Numbered from the stretch's first letter, positions 25,294 to 41,807 are shown. The stretch is 64,000 nucleotides of DNA from an uncultured Bacteroidia bacterium (GCA_943788195.1 CALSPH010000002.1:393054-457053), one strand, 5' to 3'. The notes: generated by a model from the letters alone, not told the origin. Translations and numbers: made by a program.

Positions 25294-25364
25294 ATTCAAA
25301 GTTTTTGGTATTGACTGCGAATACAATTAAATTAGCGCAGAAATTTAAAAATAATAAGCAAAAC

Positions 25365-27545
25365 ATGAAAAAAGTATTACTATCAACTTTGGCGATTTTT
25401 ACTTTTGTGCTCAGTTCAAGTGCACAAAACTATTATGCCGTTAAAGGATCCAACTATGCCCCTGCCGGATATGACTTTCAGAAAACGTTTGAAACAGGTG
25501 TGAACACCTTGTTAAATAAAACGAGTAATGATTTAATGTCTACAGAGCAAACTATTCCATTTTCTTTTAATTTCTATGGAACTCCATACACAAAATTTAA
25601 AGCAAGTGACAATGGTTATCTAACATTTAACACAACTTCAACCACTTCGAAGCCACCCTCATTGACTGCATTGCCCACAGCTCCAGGGCCAAACAATGCT
25701 ATCTATGCTTTTTGGCATGATTTTGAGCTTAAAGCAGCTCCAAATCCTAATTTTGCAGTTAAAGTGGTATCTTATACCACAGGTACTGCTCCTAACCGTG
25801 TGCATCACATACAATGGTTTGGTGTTTCAAGGAAAGGTGCTGCTATCGCAGCTAACTCAGATGTGTATTCATTTGCCGTTTCTTTGCATGAAGGAGCTGA
25901 AGGAAATTTCGACTTAACATATAATGTATACGGTAGCACAGCTCCTTCTGGAATTATCGGTTGTGAAAATAATGGTGGAACCGCTGCTAAAATGTTAGGT
26001 GACGCTGTAACTAATTTTAAAAATGCAACGGGTGCTTCTGGAGATATTGTTTATCGTTTTATTTATGGCACTCAAGCCCCTCTTGATGCGGCAGTAATCT
26101 CTACAGACCTAGAAGGTTTTTATAAAACAGCATCAACAGTAAATATTGCAGCTACAGTAACCAATTTTGGTACAACAGCAATCACTACTTTAGATTTAAA
26201 TTACACCATTGGTGCAGGGGCAACACAAACCACCGCTCTTACCGGTCTTGACATTAAAGCAAATGGTGAAAATGCGGTTAAAGTAACAAGCAATAAGCCT
26301 TGGACAGTAGGCACAGCGGGTGACATTGAAGATGTACGTGTTTGGGTATCTAATCCAAATGCCGGAACAGATGGTAACTTAGCTAATAACGAAATAACTA
26401 GAGCCAATGTAATTAGTGTTAATGGAACAAGCGCACAACGTAACTTGTTGTTTGAAGAAGCCACAGGTGCTTGGTGCCAACATTGCCCTGATGCTGATGT
26501 TTATATGGCTAATCTTCGTTCAACTCACGTTGATCGTATTATTATAGCAAGACACCACAATTCAGATTTAATGACGAATTCCCAATCAGATATATTGAAT
26601 TCAGCTTATGCTGCAGGATATCCTTCTGGATACTTTGATCGTACGAAACAATCAGGTCAAACTAATGTTGGAATATCACGTATATTATGGAACCAAGTTG
26701 CTAATAACAGCCTTAGCGTGAGTACTCCTGCCAAGATTAATGTTACTAATGTGGTTTATAATAACACCACAAGAGTGTTAGACTTTACTATCGAAGCAGA
26801 ATTTGTGGATTACTATGGTGGAGATCTTCGAATTGGTGCAATGATCAAAGAAGATGAGATTAGAGGTAACGGTACAGGTTATAACCAAGTAATTTCTGGT
26901 GTTTATACAGGCAACCCAAGTCATATTTTTAGTGGCAAGAAAAACCCAATGGTTGGCTATCCACACGAAGATGTAATTGTTGCTATTCCTTCAGGTGCAT
27001 GGGGATCACCAGGTTCGGTGCCTACAACAGTAGCACCTGCTCAAAAAGTAACTTTTGACTATAGCTATACTCTGCCTGCGCTTACGACTGCAAACATTCC
27101 AACCACAGCAGAATTTTATCCTGTAGGTACTCAAACCAGCAGAAACAAACCTGCGAACACATGGATTATCGGTTTTATTGCTGAATATGATGCAACGGAT
27201 GATACCAAACGTAAAATCTTGAATGCAAACGAAAGACAAATGTGGAATACAGCTGCAGGTGTAACAACCAATGATATTGCTGCTAACACCTTCACATTGG
27301 TGCCAAATACAGCAAACAACCATGTAGAGATTGCGTTGAATTACAACAATCCTGCAGCCAACAATGCTAAGGTAACCATTACCAACCTTGCAGGACAAAC
27401 CATTGGCACGTATAATATGAATGATTTGAAAACAGGAATGAACACATTAAAAATCAATACATCTGATTTTGCAAATGGAATGTATCTTGTAAATATCACT
27501 GGTACAAAAATGAACTTAACGCAAAAATTAGTGATCGCGCATTAA
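25365..27545 (+). CDS. secreted protein with T9SS C-terminal sorting domain
   Basis: Signal peptide starting at internal Met (MKKVLLSTLAIFTFVLSSSAQ). C-terminal about 80 aa beta-sandwich ending ...GMYLVNITGTKMNLTQKLVIAH, typical of a type-A T9SS CTD. Confidence 0.6.
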   Translation: MKKVLLSTLAIFTFVLSSSAQNYYAVKGSNYAPAGYDFQKTFETGVNTLLNKTSNDLMSTEQTIPFSFNFYGTPYTKFKASDNGYLTFNTTSTTSKPPSLTALPTAPGPNNAIYAFWHDFELKAAPNPNFAVKVVSYTTGTAPNRVHHIQWFGVSRKGAAIAANSDVYSFAVSLHEGAEGNFDLTYNVYGSTAPSGIIGCENNGGTAAKMLGDAVTNFKNATGASGDIVYRFIYGTQAPLDAAVISTDLEGFYKTASTVNIAATVTNFGTTAITTLDLNYTIGAGATQTTALTGLDIKANGENAVKVTSNKPWTVGTAGDIEDVRVWVSNPNAGTDGNLANNEITRANVISVNGTSAQRNLLFEEATGAWCQHCPDADVYMANLRSTHVDRIIIARHHNSDLMTNSQSDILNSAYAAGYPSGYFDRTKQSGQTNVGISRILWNQVANNSLSVSTPAKINVTNVVYNNTTRVLDFTIEAEFVDYYGGDLRIGAMIKEDEIRGNGTGYNQVISGVYTGNPSHIFSGKKNPMVGYPHEDVIVAIPSGAWGSPGSVPTTVAPAQKVTFDYSYTLPALTTANIPTTAEFYPVGTQTSRNKPANTWIIGFIAEYDATDDTKRKILNANERQMWNTAAGVTTNDIAANTFTLVPNTANNHVEIALNYNNPAANNAKVTITNLAGQTIGTYNMNDLKTGMNTLKINTSDFANGMYLVNITGTKMNLTQKLVIAH

Positions 27546-29000: not shown

Positions 29001-30098
29001 ATGAGTATCGAAATAAAGGAAGTTAGCCAGGCAGAAGAAAATGCATTTATTCAGCTGCCCTATGCCATCTATAAAAACAACCCCGATTTTATCCCGCATA
29101 TTGAGTCAGATATTGCAGCAACATTTGATCCCTCCAAAAACAATTATTTTGAGGAAGGCCAAATTAAACGCTGGCTGGCCTATCAGAATAATCAATGTGT
29201 TGGGCGCATTGCAGCCGGATTCAAACCGAATGAAGAAGATGGAAGAATTGGATTCTTTGAATGCATTGATGATCAAAGTGTTTGTGACCAACTTTTTACG
29301 GTAGCCGAAAAATGGCTCAAATCAGCAGGCAAACAAAGAGTTCAAGCACCCGTTAATTTTGGGAGTCGCGACAGCTTTTGGGGACTAATGATCACCGGAT
29401 TTAAGCGACCCAGTTATCGCGAAAGCTTTAATCCAAGGTATTATCAAACATTAATTGAAAATCAGGGTTATGTTGAAGATTTTAAGCAAACCACATCAGA
29501 AATCGACCCTAAAATATTTAACCATGAGCGCTTTAGTAAGTTAGCAGGGCGCGTGTTGCAAAATGATGCCTATGAATTTAAACATTTGGATTACAGCAAA
29601 ATAGATCAATTTGCAGATGACTTTGTTTACATCTATAATAAAGCCTGGGAAAACCATGATTTCTTTAAACCGCTAAAAAAAGAAGCATTATTGTTAGAAA
29701 TGAAAAAGATGAAACCCATAGCACCGGAAAAGTATAATTGGTTTGTATATGCCAATGGTGAACCGGCAGGTTTCTATATCAATGTGTTGGATGTAAATCA
29801 AGCTTTTAAGCATGTAAATGGGAAACTCAATCTCATTGGTAAGCTTAAATTTTTATGGTATCGAAAGAAAATTGATCGCATTCGTGGGATTGTTTTTGGC
29901 GTAATACCTGCTTATCACAATAAAGGATTGGAAACTGGCATGATTATGAATTTTTATGATTCCATTAGCGAACAAAGCCAATTAAAGAGTGCAGAGCTGT
30001 CATGGATTGGCGACTTTAATCCAAAGATGCAAAGCATGTTTAACAGTTTGGGAGCGGTTACATCAAAGGAACACATGACCTATGCTAAACAAATTTAA
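29001..30098 (+). CDS. hypothetical protein (possible GNAT-like fold)
   Basis: ORF only. No integrase or recombinase motifs despite its position beside the tRNA. Confidence 0.35.
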   Translation: MSIEIKEVSQAEENAFIQLPYAIYKNNPDFIPHIESDIAATFDPSKNNYFEEGQIKRWLAYQNNQCVGRIAAGFKPNEEDGRIGFFECIDDQSVCDQLFTVAEKWLKSAGKQRVQAPVNFGSRDSFWGLMITGFKRPSYRESFNPRYYQTLIENQGYVEDFKQTTSEIDPKIFNHERFSKLAGRVLQNDAYEFKHLDYSKIDQFADDFVYIYNKAWENHDFFKPLKKEALLLEMKKMKPIAPEKYNWFVYANGEPAGFYINVLDVNQAFKHVNGKLNLIGKLKFLWYRKKIDRIRGIVFGVIPAYHNKGLETGMIMNFYDSISEQSQLKSAELSWIGDFNPKMQSMFNSLGAVTSKEHMTYAKQI

Positions 30099-30178: not shown

Positions 30179-30251
30179 GATTCCTTAGCTCAGCTGGTAG
30201 AGCATATCCCTTTTAAGGATAGGGTCCTGGGTTCGAACCCCAGAGGGATCA
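30179..30251 (+). tRNA. tRNA-Lys (anticodon TTT)
   Basis: Manual cloverleaf: acceptor GATTCCT/AGGGATC (one G-U), D-arm GCTC/GAGC, anticodon stem TATCC/GGATA with loop CTTTTAA, T-arm CTGGG-TTCGAAC-CCCAG, discriminator A. Confidence 0.85.
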
Positions 30252-30257
30252 CAAAAT
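30239..30257 (+). repeat. attL-like core: CCCAGAGGGATCACAAAAT at the tRNA-Lys 3' end, directly repeated at 41249-41267
   Basis: Exact 19-bp match between the 3' part of tRNA-Lys (T-stem 3' half, acceptor 3' half, discriminator and 6 nt downstream) and a site about 11 kb downstream. Confidence 0.6.
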
Positions 30258-30258
30258 A

Positions 30259-30298
30259 AAAACGCAACCAACTATTAATTAAGTGGTTGCGTTTTTTT
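30259..30298 (+). terminator. rho-independent terminator after tRNA-Lys
   Basis: AACGCAACCA...TGGTTGCGTT stem plus T7. Confidence 0.5.
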
Positions 30299-30567
30299 AT
30301 GCGCTTTATTTGTACGATTTCTGTATTGTAGAGGTGCTTTAATCACTTTTCGCTCTTTAAAGATATTATATTCTAATTAAGGATTACTAAAAGTATTAAG
30401 TTTTATTCCTTAAAAATAACTTCATTATAATACTTCTTAGATGGTCTATACCACCAGGGTCGATTAGGGTGGGTAAGTATTAAACCAATTCCAATTAGTT
30501 TTTTTAAAATTAGCATAAACTACTAAATACACATACTACTATCTCCAGAGAATATTCGGCTACACTG

Positions 30568-30639
30568 CACATAAGCAGATAAGGGAAATAAACTCCATGT
30601 CCAAACTATTAGACATGGAGTTTATCTACTAGTTATGGG
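30568..30639 (+). repeat. attC-like imperfect palindrome A (CACATAAGC ... AGTTATGGGC), containing a perfect 13-bp inverted repeat
   Basis: TAAACTCCATGTC-(10 nt)-GACATGGAGTTTA palindrome flanked by CATAAG / GTTATGGG termini. The downstream ORF's ATG lies inside the GTTATGGG motif. Confidence 0.4.
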
Positions 30640-30922
30640 CAAGTTTATTACATTTGCAACTAAAGTAAACATGAATACAGATACATTAAAACTAATTCTC
30701 GATAGTATGAGAAAAGAGATCAAGGATAGAAAAACCTATCTTGAATCTTTACGAAAACTAACTACAAAAAAAAGGTTCGAAGTAAATGACGTACTCTTAC
30801 ATCAAGAAATTGTTGGAATCGAAAAATATTTGGAAAATGAGCAATTGTCATTAGAAGAAAAAGAAGAACTTGAAACTATAAAATCTGAATTAACGAAAAT
30901 ATCAACCTCAAAAAACAAATAA
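30635..30922 (+). CDS. hypothetical small coiled-coil protein (cassette-borne)
   Basis: 95 aa ORF. Its stop is 1 nt before the start of the next gene. Confidence 0.35.
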   Translation: MGKFITFATKVNMNTDTLKLILDSMRKEIKDRKTYLESLRKLTTKKRFEVNDVLLHQEIVGIEKYLENEQLSLEEKEELETIKSELTKISTSKNK

Positions 30923-30923
30923 A

Positions 30924-32645
30924 ATGAAAAAGAAATTTTTATTAACTGCAATGATTACAACCTTATTCATAGGTAAATCATACTCTCAAACAAATTTAAT
31001 ACAACAAGACACAATGATTTATTGTGATCAAGATAGTGCAATCATTCAATTAAACAATTCTTATAATCTTGTGGCTTGGGAAAAAGTAGGTTCATCTGGA
31101 TTAGTTTTAAATAATCAATTGACAATACGCGAATCTGGCTTTTACTATGTCTTTGCGGCAGATTCCACCTTAGGTGACACTACAATATGTTTTAGCACTA
31201 CTGATGCTTCTATGTCTACTTTGGTAAATGTTCCTGTTGGTTATATTATTACTGATGTTATTGCAGGTTATTATGGTACTCCAATCGCAAATTGCAGTAA
31301 TCCGTTACCTGGTTCTTGTCATTTTGATGCGACAAATATTATTAGGAAAGGACTTGTTGGAAAAAAAAGCTTTCAATATTACCAAGGTTTTCATCCTGAC
31401 TTGTGCACAGGTGTAGTAAAATCATTATATGTTAAGTTACGGTGCATGAAATATATTCAAGATTCAATTTATGTTTCGTTAATAAAAAAACCATTGAATT
31501 ATACTCTAATTTCTGATACAATAATTTGTTCCAATAATAATGTTTCTTTAACATTACCTGCCTTAATATGTGACACTACTTTTATACCTGTCGATACGCT
31601 CAATCTATCTGTTACATCAAATAATGACGTCAATTCTATATCTACAAAATCTGGCAGGCTATACCAAATAAAAGTATCAAATGCTGTTTCCTACGGTGGA
31701 GGTTCGGGTAATCAGGCTGATGGAGCCTATACAAATATTACTGCTAGTCCACTTGAGAACATAACTTGGCGTATAAATGGAATGCAATTTGGTACACTTA
31801 CTGATTTTCGACCAATTCCAAATGGTTATAACCCTTCCCACGAATATTATTTTTACTTAATAGGAAATGGTGAACCGTTTGTTTTTCGTGCAAATGATTG
31901 TTGCTTGGGGGATAATTCAGGTCAATTTCAATTTATTATAAGCGAAGTGTTAATCAACCAACAATGCAACCTAAATTACATATGGTCTAATGGTAACATT
32001 GGTAATACCGTTAATTTAGCTCCTTCAAATATTCCTTACACACTGTCATTAAGCAATGGTAATAATACTTGCACGATAGATACTTTTAATGTTACTGCCC
32101 AAAACACAATTAACACACAACCACAAAATCAAATCGTAAACATTAATGCTAATGTATTTTTCTTAGCCACATCGTCTAACCTAAGCGCCAATTACCAATG
32201 GCAAACCGACCTTGGTGTAGGCTTTCAAAATTTAAATAATGTTGGGCAATATAGTGGAACTACTAACGATACACTAACGGTTTTAAATGTAATGATTAGC
32301 AATAACAATCAACCATTCCGTTGCATTGTTTCTTCTGGTTCATGTTCTGACACATCAAATGTTGCAGTTTTAACCGTGAATAATAATGTTGGCATAAATG
32401 AAACCTCACAAGACAAACTATTCTCAGTGTTTCCAAACCCTGCGCAAAGTGTAATTAATGTAAAGGCAGACAGCAAACTTATCGGGTCGGTTTATTCCAT
32501 TTATGATAACACAGGAAGAGTTGTATTATCAGGAAAGCTAAACGCTGAAAGCACAACAATTGAGTTAGATAATTTATCAGGTGGTATTTATATGATCAGT
32601 GTTGGAGAAAATATGAAGCAGGCATTTAAGGTAATAAAGGAGTAA
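30924..32645 (+). CDS. secreted protein with T9SS C-terminal sorting domain (cassette cargo)
   Basis: Signal peptide MKKKFLLTAMITTLFIGKSYSQ. C-terminal 75 aa (FPNPAQSVINVKAD...GGIYMISVGENMKQAFKVIKE) is a T9SS CTD and about 55% identical to the CTD of the 36060-37238 product. Confidence 0.55.
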   Translation: MKKKFLLTAMITTLFIGKSYSQTNLIQQDTMIYCDQDSAIIQLNNSYNLVAWEKVGSSGLVLNNQLTIRESGFYYVFAADSTLGDTTICFSTTDASMSTLVNVPVGYIITDVIAGYYGTPIANCSNPLPGSCHFDATNIIRKGLVGKKSFQYYQGFHPDLCTGVVKSLYVKLRCMKYIQDSIYVSLIKKPLNYTLISDTIICSNNNVSLTLPALICDTTFIPVDTLNLSVTSNNDVNSISTKSGRLYQIKVSNAVSYGGGSGNQADGAYTNITASPLENITWRINGMQFGTLTDFRPIPNGYNPSHEYYFYLIGNGEPFVFRANDCCLGDNSGQFQFIISEVLINQQCNLNYIWSNGNIGNTVNLAPSNIPYTLSLSNGNNTCTIDTFNVTAQNTINTQPQNQIVNINANVFFLATSSNLSANYQWQTDLGVGFQNLNNVGQYSGTTNDTLTVLNVMISNNNQPFRCIVSSGSCSDTSNVAVLTVNNNVGINETSQDKLFSVFPNPAQSVINVKADSKLIGSVYSIYDNTGRVVLSGKLNAESTTIELDNLSGGIYMISVGENMKQAFKVIKE

Positions 32646-32650
32646 GCCAG

Positions 32651-32784
32651 CCCTTAACAGCACCTAAAAGAAATTGGCGGAAATGTGCTCCGCAGAAAGA
32701 TTTGTGATGAAAGAAAAATTCTTCTCCACAAAAGCATCTCGGTTAAAACCCGCCAACTTCTTTTAGCTGCAAACCGTTATGGGT
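32651..32784 (+). repeat. attC-like imperfect palindrome B (134 bp)
   Basis: 5' CCCTTAACAGCACCTAAAAGAAATTGGCGG pairs with 3' CCGCCAACTTCTTTTAGCTGCAAACCGTTATGGG (21/23 complementary). Termini AAC/GTT. Begins 6 nt after the stop codon. Confidence 0.5.
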
Positions 32785-32935
32785 AATATTAATAAACAAG
32801 ATTAAGACAAAATCCACTGAATCAAACTGACTAATAAAAGAATGGTCATAGAATAGTTCAAAAAATAATATCGGGTCAGAATAAGCCGAACAAGACCAAA
32901 AAATTTGAAGTAGGCAAAACTTAAATTATAATGAG

Positions 32936-33343
32936 ATGAAAAAAAATATTTTCCTAAGTCTTCTTTTAGTAACACTTTTTGGTTTCTCCGCAATGTCGCA
33001 GTCAATTATTGTAAAAGATGGAAATTATAATATCCAATTGCGTATTGACGGTGATATTGTGAAAAATAATAATTATGATATTATTGGCCGAATTGACGGT
33101 AGCATAATTAAAGACGGTAATTATAATATTATTTGCCGAATTGACGGGAACACAATTAAAGATGGTAATTATAATATTATTGGCCGAATTGACGGGAACA
33201 CAATTAAAGATGGTAATTATAATATTGTTGGCCGAATTGACGGGAACATAATTAAAGATGGCAATTATAATATTGTTGGCCGAATTGACGGTTCACCAAG
33301 AAGTAAACAAATGATTTCAATTCTGTATTTTCTTGTATTGTGA
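32936..33343 (+). CDS. small secreted protein made of six 16-aa tandem repeats (KDGNYNIIGRIDGNxI)
   Basis: Signal peptide plus six in-frame 48-bp DNA tandem repeats (33014-33301) with a few substitutions each. Confidence 0.5.
   Translation: MKKNIFLSLLLVTLFGFSAMSQSIIVKDGNYNIQLRIDGDIVKNNNYDIIGRIDGSIIKDGNYNIICRIDGNTIKDGNYNIIGRIDGNTIKDGNYNIVGRIDGNIIKDGNYNIVGRIDGSPRSKQMISILYFLVL
33014..33301 (+). repeat. 48-bp coding tandem repeat x6
   Basis: aaagatggtaattataatattattggccgaattgacgggaacacaatt and five close variants, head to tail. Confidence 0.8.
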
Positions 33344-33448
33344 TATTTTGTACCATATACATTAGAGAAAAATGGAATTATTGGAAATGCTTGGAAGTTA
33401 AATAAATGACACCGTTATTATTTTGACTACTACTCCGATAAATAAAAA

Positions 33449-33510
33449 CCCATAACACAGTGTATAGTGCATACCCTTCGGGATACGCACCATACACAAA
33501 ACGTTGTGTT
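33449..33510 (+). repeat. attC-like imperfect palindrome C (62 bp)
   Basis: CCCATAACACAGTGTATAGTGC ... GCACCATACACAAAACGTTGTGTT. Inner stem GTGTATAGTGC/GCACcATACAC and a central CCC-TTCG-GGG tetraloop hairpin. Confidence 0.45.
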
Positions 33511-33515
33511 TAATT

Positions 33516-34193
33516 ATGAGAATTACTTTTTCCATATTTACCATTCTAATTTGCTCAAACTTATTTGGGCAAAGCATACTTCTGGATACCAATATTGTTG
33601 GTGCATTAAACGAGGTAAATAGAATAAGGCATATCGCAGGATTGGATAGTGTGTCTCTTTCAAAAGAATTAAGTAAAGGCTGTTCCCTTCATGCAAAATA
33701 CCTTGCGATTAATAAAGGGAACCCCAAAATACAAGGTCTTAATGCTCATAAAGAATATAAATCATTAAAAGGAGCTACGCTTGAAGGAATGAAGGCAGGT
33801 AAAAACTCTGTCATCAATTATATTATGCCAAAAGAGTCAGTAGCTGGTTGGGAAGCTACTTTTTATCATAGAATCCCATTATTACAACCAAAATTAAAAG
33901 AAATAGGAATCGGCTATTTTATCCCTAACAATTCTTACCCTATCAGCCTAGTTGAATGTATAACTGGAGCAACAGGAACCGACACGACTTCAATAGTCTA
34001 CTACCCTGCAAAGGAACAGCAAGATGTTCCAACAGCTATGGGAGCAGAAATTCCACACCCAATGGGAAGTCAAGGAGATTATGGTTACCCAATTACAATT
34101 TATTTTTGCAAATGGCAGGAAATCAAAAATGTAACATTAAGACTGAATAAATCAGACACACTTATTGATTGCAATATATCAACACCAGAATAA
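33516..34193 (+). CDS. CAP/SCP-domain secreted protein; the frame continues in another frame to 34362
   Basis: Signal peptide MRITFSIFTILICSNLFGQ and CAP-domain core (GCSLHAKYLA...NAHKE...AGWEATFYHRIP). The ATG at 33516 is preferred over the TTG at 33504. An overlapping 65-aa ORF (34165-34362) is in another frame. Confidence 0.6.
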   Translation: MRITFSIFTILICSNLFGQSILLDTNIVGALNEVNRIRHIAGLDSVSLSKELSKGCSLHAKYLAINKGNPKIQGLNAHKEYKSLKGATLEGMKAGKNSVINYIMPKESVAGWEATFYHRIPLLQPKLKEIGIGYFIPNNSYPISLVECITGATGTDTTSIVYYPAKEQQDVPTAMGAEIPHPMGSQGDYGYPITIYFCKWQEIKNVTLRLNKSDTLIDCNISTPE

Positions 34194-34535
34194 ACCAGCA
34201 ACAAACTTTCCCCAATGGAACACAATATGTGCCATACCTAAAAAGCCTTTAGAACCGAATACTGTTTACAAAATTTCATTTAGCTGTACAATAAATGGAG
34301 TACTTCATCGAGAAGAATATCAATTTAAAACTAAACACAACGGGTTAGTATATGAAAAGTAGGCGATTTCTAAACACAAAACTTTCAGTTAAGCACAAAG
34401 TTTGATATGAGCCAAAAGCCTTGAATTTACTACTATTCCGCCTATTTTTTATATACATTGTTACCAAACGTGTTTTTTAAATGAGCTCGATTAAACTTTT
34501 ACAATTAAGGTAAATGGTTAAATCTGTCCTATTCT

Positions 34536-35864
34536 TTAAAATGATATCTGTGCTCCTAAAACAATTCCCATGCTATTGGCATCTCTATCACTATGAGTGG
34601 TGCCAGGAGGGAATGGATCAAAGTCAGCACTTCCACTTATAAAATTTAATGGAGCAAAACCTTCAGTTCTGAATATTTCAACAAATAGTTTTGCTGATTT
34701 ATTCATTAAGGCTTGATATCCTAGAACATACTGGTTTTGTCTTTCCCAGGGAGCCCCATTTGGTCCAGCTATAAAATTTGAAAATTCTCCAGAAAGTGTA
34801 TGTTTGATTTTACCTACTTTATTTAAATCATATTTTGCACCAAGACTCAATGAACTAACTTTAGAGGCTTCAAATATATTTAGTGGTGGTGTTGGATTAA
34901 ATGTACCTTCCCATTCATCAAAAGTTTTTGCAAATGAAGCCATTACGATAAGACGATTATTTACATCTAATGTACCGTATACAGTATACTCAGGATTGTT
35001 TTCTTCACAAGGTGTAAAATGAAAAACAGGAAAGCCTTGGCAATATGCACCTCCTTTTTTATATGATGCACCAGCTTTTAAATTTACTTTATCAGAAATA
35101 ACTAATTTATAGTTTAAATCTGCAACAAGATTGTTAAGTTTTGAAGGCACAGCAGTTGCATTCCCAACAGGTACATGTAATGCTCTAAATTGAGCACCTC
35201 CTTGAGCCAACATGATTTTAGCATGAAGCCCTCCTTTATTATATCCAATCTGGGCACCGTAACCTAGACCACCGAATGCATGCCACATAGTTGAATTAGT
35301 AAATGGGTTTACAGTTCCCATTTGTCCGAATGGAGCATCCATTTTTCCCACAGCACTGTAAAATGGTGATTTATTCAAGTTTCCAAAAACTACAAACGCT
35401 TTCCTTAATTGAATTTGATTTCTATTTAGATTTGTAATAGTACCTGAGCCAAAACTTTGTTCAGGGTTATATAATAATTCAGCATAGGAAGTTATCCAAC
35501 TATTAATGGTAGCTGTGACTGATAACTGAAAAGAATGAATCACGGCCTCACTTACATCTTTTCCAATCTGATTATTTGCAGTTGGATGCCTCATAAGATA
35601 ACCAAATTTTGAGTCTGTATTAGAATGCTGGTAATCAACAATAGAAATTAATGAAGTACCAATAATTAAATTGTTATTTTTAATAAGTTCATTTTTCTTT
35701 GAATTGAGAAGTATTTCTACTTTTCTTAAATTTTGGTTTTGATCTAGCATTTTGTAACTAAACTCAGGGTTGATTCCAATTCTTTTAATAGCGGTTGTGT
35801 CGATTTGAGCTAATGCGTAATTCCCTATCAGAAGTAGGGTTAGGAGGAAGAATATTTTTTTCAT
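34536..35864 (-). CDS. outer-membrane beta-barrel (porin-like) protein
   Basis: Signal peptide, alternating amphipathic strands rich in G, Y and N, and a C-terminal ...GAQISF with terminal Phe. Confidence 0.45.
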   Translation of the reverse strand: MKKIFFLLTLLLIGNYALAQIDTTAIKRIGINPEFSYKMLDQNQNLRKVEILLNSKKNELIKNNNLIIGTSLISIVDYQHSNTDSKFGYLMRHPTANNQIGKDVSEAVIHSFQLSVTATINSWITSYAELLYNPEQSFGSGTITNLNRNQIQLRKAFVVFGNLNKSPFYSAVGKMDAPFGQMGTVNPFTNSTMWHAFGGLGYGAQIGYNKGGLHAKIMLAQGGAQFRALHVPVGNATAVPSKLNNLVADLNYKLVISDKVNLKAGASYKKGGAYCQGFPVFHFTPCEENNPEYTVYGTLDVNNRLIVMASFAKTFDEWEGTFNPTPPLNIFEASKVSSLSLGAKYDLNKVGKIKHTLSGEFSNFIAGPNGAPWERQNQYVLGYQALMNKSAKLFVEIFRTEGFAPLNFISGSADFDPFPPGTTHSDRDANSMGIVLGAQISF

Positions 35865-35918
35865 ATTTTAAAGTATTTAAGTTTTATTTGTTTCAGTTAA
35901 TTTATGTTTGGTAACAAA

Positions 35919-35981
35919 GGCTAAAATACATAACCTAACCTACCAAACCAATTTTACGTATTTTAGCCAGAACGTTATGGG
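35919..35981 (+). repeat. attC-like imperfect palindrome E
   Basis: GGCTAAAATAC / GTATTTTAGCC perfect 11-bp stem. ACATAAC ... AACGTTATGGGCAAG termini shared with other copies. Confidence 0.4.
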
Positions 35982-36059
35982 CAAGTTTGAAAAATCACAA
36001 ACTAAATTATACTATTTGATAGGGAATTAGACTTAAAAAAACTTAATAATATATCTAAA

Positions 36060-37238
36060 ATGAAAAAAATAACATTACAATTTCTTTTATTCTGTTGCTT
36101 AAGCGTTTCAGCTTATGGCCAATGGCAACCATCTGCAGGAACGGCTGGATTAAATATGCAGTCATTATTAACAAATGGCATCTACAATTTTGCAGGAGGA
36201 CAAACGGGAGCTTACCTTTCCACTGATAGTGCCGCAAATTATTCATTATCAAATACCGGAAATGACAATATTGGTCCTACAAGAGGTTTTACAAAGGATA
36301 ACAATTATATCTATACTTGCACAAGTCAAGGTGCTTTTAGAAGCTCTGACAATGGAGCAACTTGGGTTTCTAAAAGTGTTGGATTAACCAATTTACTAGG
36401 AGGCGGAATTTTAAATGCAGGCACAAGATTGTTTTATGTAGGACCAACTGGTGTTTTTATGTCAACGAACCAAGGAGATAATTGGAGTGCAGCAGGTTTA
36501 TCAACAACAGATGTAAGATGCATTACAGCAATAAATGACACATTATTTGTTGGAACAAATGGCGCTGGTATTTATAAAAGTATTGATTGGGGAGCTAACT
36601 GGATTCCAATTAATAATGGCTTAGGCGGTTCTACAAATTTTAGAGCCATAGAAAGCAAAGGAAACATACTTTTCGCTGGTGGACAAATAGGAACAGGCGT
36701 TTATCGCTCCACAGATTTTGGTGCAAATTGGACATTATTAGGAGGAGGGCTTGCATCAGGATCTTATAGGGGATTTGCCAGCAACTCACAGTTAATTGTT
36801 GCTGGCTCTTTTGGCGCAGGTGTTTTTTACTCAACAGATAATGGCAATAATTGGACAGCAATCAATACTGGTTTAACTGATTTGACTATTTTTGATTTAG
36901 AACTTAACGACAATTACATAATTGCAGCTACTAATACTCAAGGGGTATTTCGTTTTGCGCTTTCTAATCTGAATTTATCTACCGACATATCTGATTTTGA
37001 TTTAAAAAATGCAATTTCTCTTTTTCCTAATCCAACCACAAATCAAATCAATGTAAAATCCGATTGTAAAATTATTGGAACGGCATATACTATCTATGAC
37101 AATTTAGGTAAAGCCATTTTATCAGGATTAATAAATTATGAGAATGCTATTATAGAAATGGGGCATTTAACTGGTGGCATTTATACGTTGAGTATTGGAG
37201 AAAATAAGAAACAAGTGTTCAAAATAATTAAACAATAA
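36060..37238 (+). CDS. BNR/Asp-box repeat protein with T9SS C-terminal sorting domain (cassette cargo)
   Basis: Signal peptide. Repeated SxDxGxxW Asp-box motifs (SDNGATW, TNQGDNW, SIDWGANW, STDFGANW, STDNGNNW). CTD paralogous to that of the 30924-32645 product. Confidence 0.6.
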   Translation: MKKITLQFLLFCCLSVSAYGQWQPSAGTAGLNMQSLLTNGIYNFAGGQTGAYLSTDSAANYSLSNTGNDNIGPTRGFTKDNNYIYTCTSQGAFRSSDNGATWVSKSVGLTNLLGGGILNAGTRLFYVGPTGVFMSTNQGDNWSAAGLSTTDVRCITAINDTLFVGTNGAGIYKSIDWGANWIPINNGLGGSTNFRAIESKGNILFAGGQIGTGVYRSTDFGANWTLLGGGLASGSYRGFASNSQLIVAGSFGAGVFYSTDNGNNWTAINTGLTDLTIFDLELNDNYIIAATNTQGVFRFALSNLNLSTDISDFDLKNAISLFPNPTTNQINVKSDCKIIGTAYTIYDNLGKAILSGLINYENAIIEMGHLTGGIYTLSIGENKKQVFKIIKQ

Positions 37239-37244
37239 AACCAG

Positions 37245-37322
37245 CCCATAACAGCGTGTAAGCAATATTGCCTTGCCGCGGGCGCAACACAAGGAAAAAT
37301 CGCCTACACGCAAAACGTTAGC
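37245..37322 (+). repeat. attC-like imperfect palindrome F
   Basis: CCAGCCCATAACAGCGTGTAAGC ... GCCTACACGCAAAACGTTAGCG. Its first 15 nt (CCAGCCCWTAACAGC) are shared with copy B. Confidence 0.5.
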
Positions 37323-37341
37323 GTTAATAAAATCAAAATAA

Positions 37342-38211
37342 ATGAATAAGATGACGAAAATAATTTTAAGTGCGATGATGGTTTTTACTATGACTATTGC
37401 AAATGCACAAAGTAAGAAGGAACAGATTGAAAATCTAACTTTTTCATTAGATAGCTTGAATCAATTAGTAGCTGTCGAACGGCAAAACTTCATCACTACT
37501 TTAGATAGCTTGAATCAACTTCTTAGTAAGAACAAACAAGATTTTGAATTAGAGATGGACAAATCTAGTATCACAATCGAGAACCTCAATTCTCAATTAA
37601 TTAGATTGTATTCGATAAATGATTCAATAAACATTGAACTCATAACTAAGGATCAAAAAATAGACTCACTAACACTAAAGAACTTGAGGCTTTTAGCAGA
37701 TATAGATTCGTTAAGTAACCCTAAAATTGACAAAGAGAATAATTGGATTTTAATCGAAAGTAATCTTAAATGGATAGAGAAAGATTATAGTACAACAATA
37801 CAATGGCTTAATAATAATATTTTTGATGAAGGCTCAGAAATTCAAACAACTCGCCAAGACATTTACACCCCCACCTGCTATTCATATGTAATGGATGCTA
37901 TGGACTATTATTGGGGCTATCCTGGTAGTATAGAAGAAGACGAATTTAAATCAAAATGGAATTCAATGTTTGATTTGAAGTACTCGTCTTTCGGTCACGC
38001 ATTCCAAAATGGAAATTGTGGTTGGGCATCATTTAAATTGGAAAACATAGAGTTCCTAGGGTCTCTAAATGACGGGGATTGGTGTAAATTAACAATTTTA
38101 GGAGGATGTGGTGAAAATGATTATTCACAAACGCTTGTAAGAGTAGTAAAAATAATAGAAGAAAACGGCTCTTTTAGAATCGCAAATTTTATATCACTAA
38201 GAGATGAATAA
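37342..38211 (+). CDS. hypothetical secreted protein (N-terminal coiled coil with duplicated LDSLNQL segment, Cys/Trp-rich C-terminal domain)
   Basis: Signal peptide MTKIILSAMMVFTMTIANAQ. No family recognised. Confidence 0.4.
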   Translation: MNKMTKIILSAMMVFTMTIANAQSKKEQIENLTFSLDSLNQLVAVERQNFITTLDSLNQLLSKNKQDFELEMDKSSITIENLNSQLIRLYSINDSINIELITKDQKIDSLTLKNLRLLADIDSLSNPKIDKENNWILIESNLKWIEKDYSTTIQWLNNNIFDEGSEIQTTRQDIYTPTCYSYVMDAMDYYWGYPGSIEEDEFKSKWNSMFDLKYSSFGHAFQNGNCGWASFKLENIEFLGSLNDGDWCKLTILGGCGENDYSQTLVRVVKIIEENGSFRIANFISLRDE

Positions 38212-38264
38212 CGCTAACAACACCTAAACTGCATTAAAACGCAGTTTAGCCTAAACGTTATGGG
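38207..38264 (+). repeat. attC-like imperfect palindrome G (58 bp)
   Basis: AATAACGCTAACAACACCTAAACTGC-ATTAAAAC-GCAGTTTAGCCTAAACGTTATGGG. Perfect 9-bp inner stem. Overlaps the stop codon of the upstream gene. Near-identical to copy I. Confidence 0.5.
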
Positions 38265-38374
38265 TAAGTTGAAAACATATTGCGGTCAAAGAGATCATCT
38301 AAAACATAATGGTTCATCCAAAATATTTGTAAAACTCTTTTTATATTTGAAAATAAAATTATAAAAAACCCAAC

Positions 38375-38443
38375 CCATAACAATTTGTATAGCGCATATG
38401 CTCCCTGCGGGATGCAAACGCATCATACTAGGACCGTTATGGG
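38375..38443 (+). repeat. attC-like imperfect palindrome H (69 bp), apparently ORF-less cassette
   Basis: CCCATAACAATTTGTATAGCGCAT...TGCTCCC-TGCG-GGATGCA...GGACCGTTATGGG. Only 110 bp separates it from copy G, with no plausible ORF between them. Confidence 0.45.
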
Positions 38444-38557
38444 CAATTAAAAAGAATAATTGTAAATCTAGATAATGTGGAGTCCAGAACCCACAAAAAT
38501 AAACGGGGCGATACTGAAATGCCTTATGATTAGGAACAAAATTTAAATAAAATAATT

Positions 38558-39157
38558 ATGAAAAAAGTAATGACAATTTTTGGAGCAATTCTATTTGCTT
38601 CAATAAACTTAACAAGTTGCGGGAGCGATTCAAAGTCGAAATCTGTTGAAAAGACAAATGAGGAATCTGCTGCAATAACTGAAGATACAAATCAGAAATC
38701 TACTGCAATTATTGAAGATATTGTAAATGACGATAATACTGAATATTACATAATTGAAGACCCAGACGGTTATTCTAATTTAAGAGAAGTGCCAAGTGGT
38801 AATGTTATAAGAAAAGTATATAGCAGTGAGAAGTTTGAGATAATAGGTGAGGAAAATAAATATAAAAAAGTGCAGTTCCCTGACGCCTCAACCGGCTATA
38901 TCCACAACTCAAGAGTTGTTAACTTTAATGTCAAGGTTTGCGAATGTCTCCATTCAGCTGATGAAATGATAAATAAAGATTTAGATAAAGACTTCAGTAC
39001 TGGTTCAGAAACAGGTTTTTCAGACAACTGGAAGCCATCATACACAGAAAGACTTGTTGAAATTTTTAGATATAATCAATGCCCAAAGGGCTGTGATTTT
39101 CTGGGTGATCATGATGTAATAGATTTTCAAAGTGAAATTCAACGTTGCTCAGAGTAG
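38558..39157 (+). CDS. lipoprotein with SH3b-like domain
   Basis: Lipobox INLTSC. Bacterial SH3-like segment DPDGYSNLREVPSGNVIRKVYSSEKFEI...YKKVQF...GYIHNSRV. Confidence 0.4.
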   Translation: MKKVMTIFGAILFASINLTSCGSDSKSKSVEKTNEESAAITEDTNQKSTAIIEDIVNDDNTEYYIIEDPDGYSNLREVPSGNVIRKVYSSEKFEIIGEENKYKKVQFPDASTGYIHNSRVVNFNVKVCECLHSADEMINKDLDKDFSTGSETGFSDNWKPSYTERLVEIFRYNQCPKGCDFLGDHDVIDFQSEIQRCSE

Positions 39158-39202
39158 TTTAACGTTTTATATCAGGAAGTTTTAATAAAAATTAAACTTT
39201 CA

Positions 39203-39257
39203 CATAACAACACCTAAACTGCATTAAAACGCAGCTTAGCTAAAACCGTTGTAAACC
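39203..39257 (+). repeat. attC-like imperfect palindrome I (paralog of G)
   Basis: CATAACAACACCTAAACTGCATTAAAACGCAGCTTAGCTAAAACCGTTGTAAACC, about 90% identical to copy G. Confidence 0.5.
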
Positions 39258-39280
39258 AATTAAAAATCAAATTATAAATA

Positions 39281-40075
39281 ATGAATAAAATAGAGTATAT
39301 AGAAAATGAGATTTCTGAATTAAGAAATGAATTGAAAAATCATAAACTTTATGAAAATTTACGTAACATTAATGACGTGAAAATTTTTATGGAAAATCAC
39401 ATATTTGCAGTATGGGATTTTATGTCTCTTTTAAAAAATCTTCAAATAAATCTCACTAAAGTTCAAACACCTTGGACACCGCCAAAAAACGCAAAACTAT
39501 CAAGATTTATAAATGAAATTGTTCACGGAGAGGAAAGTGACATTAATGAATTGGGAGAACCAAAGAGTCATTTTGAGATGTATTTAGATGCTATGCTCCA
39601 AGTAAATGGGAATACGAATGAAATCAATGATTTTATTAAGCTTATTGAATTGGGAAATTCAGTTGACTATTGTTTTAGTCAAGTTAATGTCGATAACAGA
39701 ATAGCTGATTTTGTTAAATTCACATTTTCGATTATTGAAACAAATAAGCCACACCTCGTAGCTTCTGCATTTACGTTTGGGCGAGAAGACGTTATTCCAG
39801 ATATGTTTATCGAAATTCTTAAAAATTCAGATTCTGAAAACAAATTATATAGCAAAATAAATTACTATCTCGAACGACATATTGAACTTGACGGAGATGA
39901 ACACGGTCCTCTATCTCTTGAGATGATTTCTGAATTATGTAAAGATGATGAGCAAAAATGGAATGAAACACTAACTGTAGCTAAACAATCATTAGAAAAA
40001 CGAATTGAACTTTGGAATGCTATATCTGATTTAATACAGAATAAAAAGCCTGCATATAACACCGTGTATAATTAA
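39281..40075 (+). CDS. hypothetical protein, possibly DUF3050-like (heme-oxygenase-like fold)
   Basis: 264 aa cytoplasmic all-alpha protein ([13 protein letters not shown]...). Family assignment is from memory only. Confidence 0.35.
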
Positions 40076-40168
40076 TTGCTTTGGCAAGTGCCTATTTGGA
40101 AAATTCCTTCGGAATTTTCTCGCGTTCGTTTTTGTTTACTAAATTAGTTGCTTAAACACGCAACTAAC

Positions 40169-40956
40169 GGTTCTGTCGCGTTAACTATTGCAATGTAATA
40201 AATCTTTAGGTTTGCTATGTAAAAATTACCTTCATGTTCAAACGTCACAGATATCCAAGAGCAATCATTCTTCAAGCGGTTTATTTCAAGTTGAGATTCA
40301 CATTGAGTTATCGAGATGTGGAAGAATTACTAAAAATTCGAGGTGTTAAAGTAGACCATTCCACTATTCAAAGGTGGGTGTTTAAGTTCAGCCCAATGAT
40401 TGAGGCTACTATGCACAAGAGGAAGAAACAGGTATGTGATAGTTGGCGAATGGACGAAACCTACATCAAGGTAGCAGGTAAAGACAGATACTTATATCGA
40501 GCTGTAGACAAGCAAGGAAATACTGTAGACTTCCTACTAACTAAACGGAGAATGAAGGGTTCTGCACAGAGGTTTCTAAACAAAGCCATAGGTAACAATG
40601 GAAAACCAAGACTGATTAATATTGATAAAAGTGGAGCAAATACTGAAGCTATCCGTATTATCAATAGATATAGTTTAACCTTCAAGAAGATAAAGACCAG
40701 GCGAGTCAAGTATCTAAATAACATAGTGGAGCAAGATCATCGGACGATCAAACGTCGAATAGCCATTACAACAGGATTCAAAGAATTTGAATCCGCTCAG
40801 AGAACACTTGCAGGAATAGAAATCATAAACATCATCAGAAAGGACCAACTTACAAATCCAAAGAAAAGTTGGTTTGCTACATTTAAGTCATTGGCTGCTT
40901 GATGAAAGTTGAATTCTGCTAAATTTAAATCCTCAATGATTTAATGCGACAGAACC
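40169..40956 (+). mobile_element. IS6-family insertion sequence (788 bp)
   Basis: Terminal inverted repeats GGTTCTGTCGCGTTAAC (left) and GTTTAATGCGACAGAACC (right), 16/17 complementary and resembling the IS257/IS26 ends GGTTCTGTTGC. Single transposase ORF. No 8-bp target-site duplication detected. Confidence 0.7.
40234..40902 (+). CDS. IS6-family transposase
   Basis: 222 aa. DDE region with DETYIKVAGKDRYLYRAVD and the typical IS6 N-terminal HTH (RYPRAIILQAVYFKLRFTLSYRDVEELL). Confidence 0.8.
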   Translation: MFKRHRYPRAIILQAVYFKLRFTLSYRDVEELLKIRGVKVDHSTIQRWVFKFSPMIEATMHKRKKQVCDSWRMDETYIKVAGKDRYLYRAVDKQGNTVDFLLTKRRMKGSAQRFLNKAIGNNGKPRLINIDKSGANTEAIRIINRYSLTFKKIKTRRVKYLNNIVEQDHRTIKRRIAITTGFKEFESAQRTLAGIEIINIIRKDQLTNPKKSWFATFKSLAA

Positions 40957-41248
40957 TAAACAAAGTCATTGCCCTCGTGCCTAAAAAGTAGTCGTAAATT
41001 TAATTTTGACTCGCTTCTTATTGAGCGGTACAAAAAACTAATAGTTGCCATAGATTAATAAAAGCCTGAACTGTACAAATATAAAATTTTTGTACGGCAT
41101 TTGTACGGCAGATTGCAATTTGTTGAAATCTAAAACAATCTAATTCAATATGCCTTAAGTTTGAAATCGTTTACCTGTATTGCATTAATGAAGATATTTG
41201 TGAATCAATAAGGATTTTAGCCTTACCTTGTTTTGCATCGTTCTTACT

Positions 41249-41267
41249 CCCAGAGGGATCACAAAAT
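41249..41267 (+). repeat. attR-like 19-bp direct repeat of the tRNA-Lys 3' end
   Basis: CCCAGAGGGATCACAAAAT identical to 30239-30257, followed by a hairpin plus T-run (41286-41325). Confidence 0.6.
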
Positions 41268-41285: not shown

Positions 41286-41325
41286 AAAAACCCCTTTTAA
41301 CATTGTTTGAAAGGGGTTTTTCTTT
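41286..41325 (+). terminator. rho-independent terminator-like hairpin after the tRNA fragment
   Basis: AAAACCCCTTT...AAAGGGGTTTT stem plus T run. Confidence 0.4.
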
Positions 41326-41442: not shown

Positions 41443-41516
41443 CGGGATGTGGCGCAGTCCGGTAGCGTACACGGCTGGGGGCCGTGCGGTCGCAGGTTCA
41501 AATCCTGTCATCCCGA
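41443..41516 (+). tRNA. tRNA-Pro (anticodon GGG)
   Basis: Manual fold: acceptor CGGGATG/CATCCCG, D-arm GCGC/GCGT, anticodon stem CACGG/CCGTG with loop CTGGGGG, T-arm GCAGG-TTCAAAT-CCTGT, discriminator A. Confidence 0.8.
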
Positions 41517-41548
41517 CAAACAAAAACGAATAAAAACATTGTCAACGA

Positions 41549-41807
41549 AATGAATGAAACAAATCAACGATTTGATTTCATGAGAGATTTGACAATGACG
41601 AGCGTTAGCGAGATTCGTTTTTAATTCCAGCGTTGGATGTAATTGGATTCACGTAAGTAAATCCATTCCAATTAATCCTACTATTTTTAACAATGAATGA
41701 AACAAATCAACGATTTGATTTCATGAGAGACTTGACAATGACGAGCGTTAGCGAGATTCGTTTTTAATTCCAGCGTTGGATGTAATTGGATTCACGTAAG
41801 TAAATCC
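41549..41807 (+). repeat. tandem direct repeat: two about 115-bp copies (41549-41664 and 41693-41807; one mismatch), period 144 bp
   Basis: aatgaatgaaacaaatcaacgatttgatttcatgagag[a/c]tttgacaatgacgagcgttagcgagattcgtttttaattccagcgttggatgtaattggattcacgtaagtaaatcc occurs twice. Each unit contains an AAATCAA-CGAT-TTGATTT hairpin. Confidence 0.8.

Follow-up and report, generated by a model that had tools for sequence, protein, structure and literature searches.

An integron-type cassette array in a probable tRNA-Lys-inserted island of an uncultured Bacteroidia bacterium

Results

The 3' end of tRNA-Lys is repeated 11 kb downstream

The locus described here lies in a 64,000-nt stretch of DNA from an uncultured Bacteroidia bacterium (GCA_943788195.1 CALSPH010000002.1:393054-457053), referred to below as the window. 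It comprises a tRNA-Lys gene, a second copy of the 3' end of this gene 11 kb further on and, between the two, an array of gene cassettes and an insertion sequence of the IS6 family. An earlier note on this DNA had read the repeated tRNA end as the attachment sites (attL and attR) of an island integrated into the tRNA gene. The features that frame this candidate island are as follows.

30179-30252, + strand: intact tRNA-Lys(UUU), the putative insertion target (ARAGORN; Rfam RF00005, 68.7 bits)
30239-30257, + strand: left repeat copy, candidate attL core, consisting of the last 14 nt of tRNA-Lys plus AAAAT
30258-30631, no strand: non-coding left arm, 374 bp, read from the sequence and conserved in all conspecific contigs
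40958-41248, no strand: non-coding right arm, 291 bp, read from the sequence, with no open reading frame (ORF) of 32 aa or longer
41249-41267, + strand: right repeat copy, an exact match, candidate attR core and displaced tRNA tail
41286-41321, + strand: terminator-like hairpin 3' of the right repeat (terminator scan)
41443-41517, + strand: tRNA-Pro(GGG), the ancestral neighbor of tRNA-Lys (ARAGORN, Rfam)

The 19-mer CCCAGAGGGATCACAAAAT was present in exactly two exact copies in the window (30239-30257 and 41249-41267, both on the + strand), and no third copy was found in the 64 kb even when up to two mismatches were allowed. Since ARAGORN places tRNA-Lys at 30179-30252, the left copy corresponds to the last 14 nt of the gene and 5 nt downstream. 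Dinucleotide shuffles gave a chance expectation of 0.01 matches, and two or more matches arose in 0 of 100 shuffles. The block of identity between the copies was sharply bounded, the sequences 3' of the copies were unrelated, and each copy was followed by its own, different hairpin and T-run. The left hairpin (~30262-30299, read directly from the sequence) had an 8-bp stem, CGCAACCA/TGGTTGCG, followed by T7; the right one (41286-41321) was identified by the terminator scan. The exact 19-bp repeat at the tRNA-Lys 3' end and the terminator-like hairpin after both copies, as given in the earlier note, were thus confirmed. Differing hairpins after the two copies are as expected for an element-borne region on one side and the native tRNA downstream region on the other. 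The right copy was also considered as a tRNA pseudogene; this was rejected, as the sequence upstream of the right core had no resemblance to a tRNA body.

A direct repeat that duplicates a tRNA 3' end and bounds the element between its copies, as seen here, is a defining feature of tRNA-integrated islands. The distinct composition of such islands was also found, with a G+C content of 0.30-0.36 inside the repeats compared with ~0.37-0.41 in the flanks (4-8 points lower). The window flanks encode housekeeping functions and components of the type IX secretion system (T9SS) typical of Bacteroidota.

The cargo is an array of nine integron-type cassettes

The cargo of the island consisted of nine cassettes, with imperfect palindromes of 55-135 nt between the ORFs, each palindrome starting with an ...AAC box and ending with a GTT.... 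box.

30633-32776, + strand: cassette 1, a 95-aa ORF and a 573-aa protein with a T9SS C-terminal sorting domain (Pfam)
32649-32782: attC1, with R'' AGCCCTTAAC matching its own cassette start at 8/10 positions; bottom-strand fold z = -5.9
32777-33503, + strand: cassette 2, a 135-aa Bflower_2 protein with 48-bp internal tandem repeats (Pfam); attC2 at 33447-33509
33504-34460, + strand: cassette 3, a CAP-domain protein (Pfam); attC3 at 34332-34466
34461-35974, - strand: cassette 4, a 442-aa porin-like protein (NCBIfam LbtU-like, below cut-off); attC4 at 35906-35980
35975-37317, + strand: cassette 5, a 392-aa protein with BNR/Asp-box repeats and a T9SS sorting domain (Pfam); attC5 at 37243-37323
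37318-38257, + strand: cassette 6, a 289-aa protein without a family match; attC6 at 38209-38263
38258-38436, + strand: cassette 7, ORF-less, 179 nt, consisting of a shared leader and attC7 (38372-38442)
38437-39248, + strand: cassette 8, a DUF805 RNA motif followed by a 199-aa SH3_3 lipoprotein-like ORF (Rfam, Pfam); attC8 at 39199-39254
39249-40168, + strand: cassette 9, a 264-aa DUF3050/HamA_HO-like protein (Pfam, 3.4e-98)

Nine sites, 55-135 nt long, showed the architecture of attC recombination sites, in which inverted R'' (..AAC) and R' (GTT....) boxes flank an imperfect palindrome of 50-140 nt. The ninth, which starts at ~40050, is cut by the IS6 element at 40168; it is intact, with R' GTTGGCA, in a conspecific contig described below (L024). 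The integron integrase, IntI, cuts between G and TT of the R' box (written G/TT here). The last bases of each attC therefore lie at the 5' start of its own cassette, so that R'' should pair with the start of its own cassette and not with that of the abutting neighbor. This permutation rule held for 8/8 complete cassettes, the R'' 10-mer in each case matching the reverse complement of its own start (8-10 of 10 positions) better than that of the neighbor (3-8 of 10). The match to the own start was perfect in three cases, TAAACACAAC of cassette 3, GTTTGGTAAC of cassette 4 and TAACGCTAAC of cassette 6, for which the neighbor matched at 3-7 of 10 (3 for cassette 3 and 4 for cassette 4), and more perfect cases were readable in the extra cassettes of L024.

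The motif GTTATGGG had eight of its 10 window copies inside the island, compared with 1.7 copies expected for the entire window. When the bottom strands of the attC sites were folded, all seven that were folded over their full span were more stable than shuffled sequences (z from -2.1 to -5.9). For attC3, a span missing the R'' box gave z = -0.04; the full span formed an L''/L' hairpin of -12.4 kcal/mol, a value taken without a shuffle control. No Rfam family matched the attC sites at its gathering score. The junction at which the first cassette begins (30632) reads ctactaG/TTATGGGC.

A complete integron carries intI and attI beside the first cassette. Neither was found here, and no tyrosine recombinase was identified in the 64 kb. 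Clusters of attC sites lacking an integron integrase are termed CALIN (Cury et al. 2016, PMC4889954; Néron et al. 2022, PMC9024848), and an attC array without intI is thus a CALIN and not a complete integron by the IntegronFinder definition (PMC4889954, PMC9024848). Judged by its sequence, the cargo shows every testable feature of such arrays and is a genuine array of integron-type cassettes that lacks an integron integrase. The cassette array, hypothetical secreted proteins and IS6 element listed in the earlier note were therefore all present, but the array had been under-described, being a bona fide CALIN. The nine cassettes mostly encode secreted or surface proteins, and a PADLOC search of all cassette proteins revealed no match to a defense system.

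Several cassettes had further features. The 48-bp tandem repeat in the Bflower_2 gene (33070-33291; 4.6 copies, 94% matches) corresponds to 16-residue repeats in the protein. The CAP gene of cassette 3 (33516-34362) carries a 1-nt insertion relative to contig L001, which splits the 276-aa version of other strains into 229-aa and 65-aa ORFs; this frameshift reflects either a true pseudogene or an artifact of assembly. The DUF805 RNA motif of cassette 8 (38472-38540, + strand; RF03081, 68.8 bits compared with a gathering score of 51.1) lies within the 5' leader of the cassette, and a candidate cis-regulatory RNA thus travels inside an integron cassette; the gene it adjoins encodes the SH3_3 lipoprotein-like protein and is not a DUF805 gene. 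A leader of ~90 nt, TTATGGGTAAGTTGAAAACATATTGCGGTCAAAGAGATCATC..., heads three cassettes, namely cassette 7 of the window (38258-38350) and two cassettes of L024, one encoding an SH3 protein (2884-2975) and one an ORF-less copy that is cut by an IS4-type (DDE_Tnp_1) element (3998-4090). The first ~40 nt of cassette 9 also recur in L024, where they precede a different 199-aa ORF.

Conspecific strains differ by whole cassettes

Conspecific metagenome contigs were collected by exact-protein look-ups; they came from many samples of a single study and from some other sources. They were 99.3-99.96% identical over the locus, except for the more divergent L013, and most shared the structure of the window. 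The interior of the island differed between contigs, in line with the earlier view that everything between the repeats is accessory.

The contig ERZ10646630:contig_16784 (L007/L024) lacked exactly 37321-38252, which is cassette 6. The resulting junction, ...gcaaaacG/TTATGGGTAAG (AAACG/TTATGGG), was precise at G/TT, as expected for attC x attC recombination, and constitutes the whole-cassette gain or loss at G/TT that characterizes such arrays. In the same contig, cassette 9 and IS6 were separated by ~6.5 kb of extra cassettes, encoding a Peptidase_C92 protein, three orphans, an SH3 protein and small ORFs and including the second ORF-less cassette, the one cut by the IS4-type element. The array thus reaches at least 14 cassettes in one strain. 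In ERZ10646601:contig_17473 (L013/L023), positions 30636-34433 (cassettes 1-3) were replaced by ~390 bp with a different 95-aa ORF; this replacement was one small cassette-like segment (reverse complement, ~2207-2598), and the left boundary of the replaced block was exactly the first G/TT. Two further structures, in ERZ10646555:contig_18587 (L004/L017) and ERZ27295583 k141_4680847 (L030), involved the IS6 element.

Outside the island, the gene for an upstream 746-aa T9SS-sorted protein (25305-27545) also varied among conspecific contigs, in which it encoded 715-726 aa or was split into 2-3 ORFs. These length differences could reflect a hypervariable, repeat-rich gene or long-read assembly errors.

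The IS6 element has variable junctions

The array is followed by a single insertion sequence.

40169-40957, + strand: IS6-family insertion sequence, 789 bp (NF033587, 240 bits compared with a cut-off of 125; PF13610, 1.6e-42)

Its features were those of the IS6 family, with a DDE transposase (gene at 40234-40902), short inverted repeats (GGTTCTGTCGCGTTAA / GGTTCTGTCGCATTAA, matching at 15/16 nt) and a length of ~0.8 kb. The identical transposase in the NCBI database is labelled 'Bacteroidia bacterium'. No 8-bp target duplication was present, the window flanks being caactaac and taaacaaa, and the flanks also differed in L024 and L004. The lack of a target duplication is as expected after adjacent deletions.

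Examination of the other contigs revealed that the left junction of the element, at 40168 in the window, lay at 36012 in L004/L017, where this position was joined to the IS6 left end and cassettes 5-9 were gone, and after the ~6.5 kb of extra cassettes in L024. In L030 it was the right junction that had shifted, the IS6 right end being joined to 41331 and the right arm deleted along with the right repeat copy and the hairpin after it. There were thus four IS6 junction states among strains, none of them with a target duplication. Intramolecular replicative transposition of the IS26 type keeps one flank fixed, moves the other and leaves no target duplications. By analogy, this junction polymorphism suggests that IS6 made nested adjacent deletions into the array and, once, outward through the right repeat.

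The identical transposase was found in at least three copies per conspecific genome. At least two further copies of the element in these genomes lay in housekeeping contexts, with no integrase or array alongside. Two such copies, inverted and ~17 kb apart, bracket housekeeping genes (L129/L130, L132/L133 and L136/L137), and this inverted pair may form a composite structure or serve as a substrate for inversion.

The island arms are non-coding

The left arm, which runs from tRNA-Lys to the first cassette junction, contains the terminator-like hairpin, a TTTGTACG motif (30309-30316) and a perfect hairpin with a 17-bp stem (30591-30627; fold z = -5.9) just 5' of the first junction. It had no ORF longer than 37 aa and no intI remnant in its 374 bp. 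The right arm carries a tandem pair of TTTGTACGGCA (41089-41110), preceded by an inverted GTACAAA. Coding remnants were sought in both arms and none were found. There were five copies of TTTGTACG in the window, and 3/5 lay at the island ends. Both motifs, the doubled TTTGTACGGCA of the right arm and the TTTGTACG of the left, are candidate arm-type binding sites of a recombinase, by analogy with a doubled motif next to an integrase gene in a relative (L091, below).

Excision of the island is predicted to give the junctions GGTTCGAACCCCAGAGGGATCACAAAATCCAAATCAGGAAACC (attB) and GCATCGTTCTTACTCCCAGAGGGATCACAAAATAAAAACGCAACC (attP). An exact scan of IMG/VR with the 19-mer gave 0 matches, and a scan of IMG/VR with the right-arm motif, together with blastn of both arms against a phage collection, returned nothing. 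An exact 19-mer scan of the JGI metagenomes gave nine matches, all of them unrelated tRNA-Lys genes (several in large tRNA arrays) or chance; CCCAGAGGGATCACAAAAT is present, for example, in unrelated tRNA-Lys genes within dense arrays of 12-22 tRNAs in JGI contigs L121, L123, L126 and L128.

Relatives carry an empty-site-like arrangement or other inserts at the same tRNA

As proposed in the earlier note, the locus was compared with relatives, which were ranked by identity of the GNAT-family protein encoded immediately upstream of tRNA-Lys (gene 29001-30098). This gene was conserved across Bacteroidia, and the GNAT-tRNA-Lys synteny was found in 40/80 loci from distant metagenome-assembled genomes (MAGs) among the matches listed. 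A GNAT-alignment scan of genome contigs gave relatives of at most 53% identity among the matches listed, and missed the species and the genus.

An empty-site-like arrangement was found in two independent relatives, both at 63% GNAT identity. tRNA-Lys and tRNA-Pro(GGG) were 35 nt apart in L116/L117 and 33 nt apart in L139-L141, compared with a gap of 11,190 bp in the window. From this sequence comparison, adjacency of tRNA-Lys and tRNA-Pro is the ancestral state. All conspecific contigs were occupied, and the sister species (L033, 81% GNAT identity) was occupied by a different insert, so that the unoccupied state was seen only at 63% identity. In L114 (68%) the Lys-Pro interval measured 1,025 bp and held one lipoprotein-like gene and no repeat. 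The contigs L031 (86%) and L119 (70%) end at or inside tRNA-Lys and are uninformative on occupancy.

In L033, CCCAGAGGGATCAC was repeated 1.7 kb 3' of tRNA-Lys, bounding a single gene, which was TIR/ThsB-like in the PADLOC search. The Lys-Pro gap of this contig was 2,992 bp, and its left arm was unrelated to that of the window. The right repeat was followed by a hairpin, AAAACCCCTT...AAGGGGTTTTT, that resembled the one in the window, and then by a further 1.1 kb, tRNA-Pro and DegT. In L091, a 446-aa protein with Phage_integrase and Phage_int_SAM_5 domains was encoded 165 bp after the orthologous tRNA-Lys and was followed by a resolvase and McrBC; a doubled CTGTGAACCGCA motif lay between tRNA-Lys and this integrase gene. 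Two MAGs carried mini-inserts with repeats of 20-23 bp and shared the motif ttttgtgcc(cc)gctgg. In L092 (2402-2526), two copies of a 23-bp stretch of the tRNA-Lys tail enclosed a 102-bp insert, and the two copies preceded different terminator hairpins; L073 (11554-11780) had two 102-bp units in tandem with tRNA-Lys-tail repeats. These mini-inserts may be minimal island remnants or miniature att-flanked elements. The inserts in L033, L091, L092 and L073 mark the tRNA-Lys tail as a recurrent recombination target in this group.

The comparison also revealed features outside the island. Directly 3' of tRNA-Pro, a 143-bp tandem unit (41549-41807) was present in 1.8 copies with 99% identity in the window and as a single copy in contigs L011, L028, L029 and L030; in L033 (14320-14640), each unit starts with ~31 nt identical to the tRNA-Pro 3' end, which is a second tRNA-tail repeat signature, at the neighboring tRNA. 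In L119 (1-3800), the DegT-MscS-Adk block has changed sides relative to the Fer2...GNAT-tRNA-Lys block and the contig ends exactly at the tRNA-Lys 3' end, an order that implies a rearrangement with one breakpoint in the tRNA-Lys/tRNA-Pro interval. L139 (15060-19100) carries a small element directly 3' of trmE (mnmE) with genes for a tyrosine integrase (Arm-DNA-bind_5, Phage_int_SAM_5, Phage_integrase), an HTH_17 protein and a Phage_CRI replication protein; the element is absent from L140/L141, which gives an occupied/empty site pair.

Origin of the island

We consider it likely that 30258-41267 is an island that a recombinase, most probably of the tyrosine type, inserted at the tRNA-Lys(UUU) 3' end, that it now lacks an integrase, and that its CALIN cargo has been edited by IntI-type recombination and by IS6. 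Through the action of a tyrosine recombinase, an incoming element would have crossed over with the tRNA-Lys 3' end inside the ~19-bp core, supplying a replacement tRNA tail with its own terminator (attL) and displacing the original tail and downstream sequence by 11 kb (attR). The repeats would be the work of an integrase, which the element either lost later, possibly through an IS6 deletion, or never had, having been moved in trans. The island would now be immobile, or mobile only with the help of an enzyme acting in trans. An IntI-type enzyme that is not encoded nearby, and so would come from elsewhere in the genome, would edit the array at G/TT of the attC sites, and IS6 would erode it from the distal end. 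The attL/attR reading of the earlier note is backed by the Lys-Pro adjacency in two relatives and by the same tail repeat around another insert in L033. Its suggestion that the island decayed, with loss of the recombinase via IS6, fared less evenly: IS6 has deleted flanking island DNA in other strains, whereas its part in removing an integrase stays conjectural, no variant having kept an integrase.

Several observations weigh against this reading. The site-specific recombinase that is expected inside a tRNA-integrated island was found in none of the places examined: no Phage_integrase, rve-type integrase or resolvase domain was detected in the island or in the 64-kb window, as the earlier note had said of the interior, and no integrase was present in L024 (the longest variant), L004, L013 or the other variants seen. 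There was no empty site among at least 10 conspecific contigs carrying the locus, and exact-pattern scans of the viral and JGI collections revealed no attB or attP of this species. The enrichment of TTTGTACG was weakly significant, with at least five copies in 4/100 shuffles. The right repeat and tRNA-Pro are separated by 175 nt for which the empty-site relatives, with spacers of 33-35 nt, have no equivalent; this indicates a history of the locus longer than a single insertion. Each structural variant is represented by one metagenome contig, and in L013 the replaced block ends on its right side not at G/TT but 26 nt into attC3 (in the L' box), which is at odds with a simple attC x attC exchange. 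Finally, the first junction at 30632 is neither a recognizable attI nor an attC.

This first junction, with no R'' partner and no adjacent intI, would also fit an array that grew in situ. The repeat would then be the footprint of an older, small insertion, the first cassette would have entered at a non-att (attG-type) site, growth would have followed by attC x attC recombination, and the 11 kb would never have been one mobile island. Insertion of cassettes by IntI at genomic sites outside att has been demonstrated (Loot et al., bioRxiv 10.1101/2022.09.11.507474), and relatives do contain both mini-inserts flanked by the tRNA-Lys tail (L092, L073) and a Lys-Pro spacer with extra DNA and no repeat (L114). 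Yet the arms of the island (374 and 291 bp) greatly exceed the mini-inserts in length, both share TTTGTACG near their ends in a manner that resembles the repeated motif beside the L091 integrase, and L033 has a gene-carrying, repeat-bounded insert at the same site. Growth in situ also requires site-specific integration to account for the repeat, and differs only in when the cargo arrived. We regard it as possible but rather unlikely.

An extension of the island reading is that the att-flanked island is a functional vehicle, in which arrays without intI would be moved between Bacteroidia genomes at tRNA-Lys by an integrase acting in trans, with an IntI elsewhere doing the editing. We consider this doubtful; if true, it would represent a two-recombinase, two-level mobility of integron cargo in a phylum regarded as poor in integrons.

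A local event, either tandem duplication or slippage, is another conceivable source of the second tRNA-Lys tail, with unrelated DNA gathering between the copies. Tandem units with tRNA tails do occur in this clade, as in the two 102-bp units of L073 and in the 143-bp unit beside tRNA-Pro, which varies in copy number and, in L033, opens with a 31-nt piece of the tRNA-Pro tail. However, tandem duplication would copy downstream DNA, and the sequences 3' of the two 19-bp copies are unrelated; the block of identity has sharp edges, L033 has a repeat of the same tail around different cargo, and the L092 copies likewise precede different hairpins. A duplicative origin is therefore very improbable. 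Chance recurrence of the 19-mer is practically negligible, given the shuffle result (0.01 expected, two or more in 0/100) and the coincidence of the repeat with a tRNA 3' end, a compositional boundary and the edge of strain-variable DNA.

Discussion

The favored reading, an island inserted at tRNA-Lys that has since lost or never had its own integrase, resembles several known systems. The Bacteroides elements NBU1 and NBU2 integrate into tRNA-Leu and tRNA-Ser 3' ends via a common core of 13-14 bp. The locus shares with NBU-type islands the duplicated tRNA 3' end, the intact tRNA, the element-borne hairpin and accessory cargo of lower G+C content, as well as the use of the same tRNA by other inserts in relatives, one of them with a Bacteroidota-type tyrosine integrase (Phage_int_SAM_5 and Phage_integrase). 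In contrast to NBU-type islands, it has no integrase, excisionase or mobilization genes in any variant seen here, and its cargo is a cassette array and not a resistance or mobilization module. By analogy, the NBU elements may be taken as the nearest counterparts of the island within the phylum.

Cis-mobilizable elements (CIMEs) are flanked by att sites, lack recombination and transfer genes, and are known beside ICESt1 and ICESt3 of Streptococcus thermophilus. The island is likewise flanked by att-like repeats, has no recombinase of its own and would depend on an enzyme acting in trans. It differs from CIMEs in lineage and target, and no integrase-bearing partner element was found in this species; an island with an integrase at the orthologous tRNA was seen only in the distant L091.

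The cargo has the properties of CALINs and sedentary arrays, including R''/R' attC boxes, a G/TT recombination point, no intI nearby and a strain-variable cassette content, with cassettes that for the most part are single ORFs lacking a promoter and pointing the same way, and that also include ORF-less and duplicated examples. Unlike described CALINs, this one has an uncultured Bacteroidia host and is enclosed by tRNA-tail repeats and capped by IS6. A survey of complete Bacteroidetes genomes found few integron elements and a single complete integron, that of Salinibacter ruber (PMC9024848). The IS6 element in turn matches the pattern of adjacent deletions by IS26 and other IS6-family members in its family transposase, its inverted repeats starting with GG, its length of ~0.8 kb, its one constant flank and its lack of an 8-bp duplication; unlike the clinical IS26, it is an insertion sequence of environmental Bacteroidia.

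None of the individual mechanisms is new, and a decayed mobile island with an array that is still reshuffled and eroded among strains is a well-documented and fairly ordinary kind of element. Mildly unusual are the Bacteroidia host, the nesting of a CALIN inside tRNA-tail repeats and the clear record at the strain level. The array of nine cassettes (at least 14 in one strain) and its polymorphism in the population show that recombination of the attC/IntI type operates in this group. The locus thus offers a strain-resolved, natural layering of tRNA-targeted integration, integron cassette exchange and IS6 erosion, which makes it useful for asking how integrase-less cassette arrays persist, get edited and might move.

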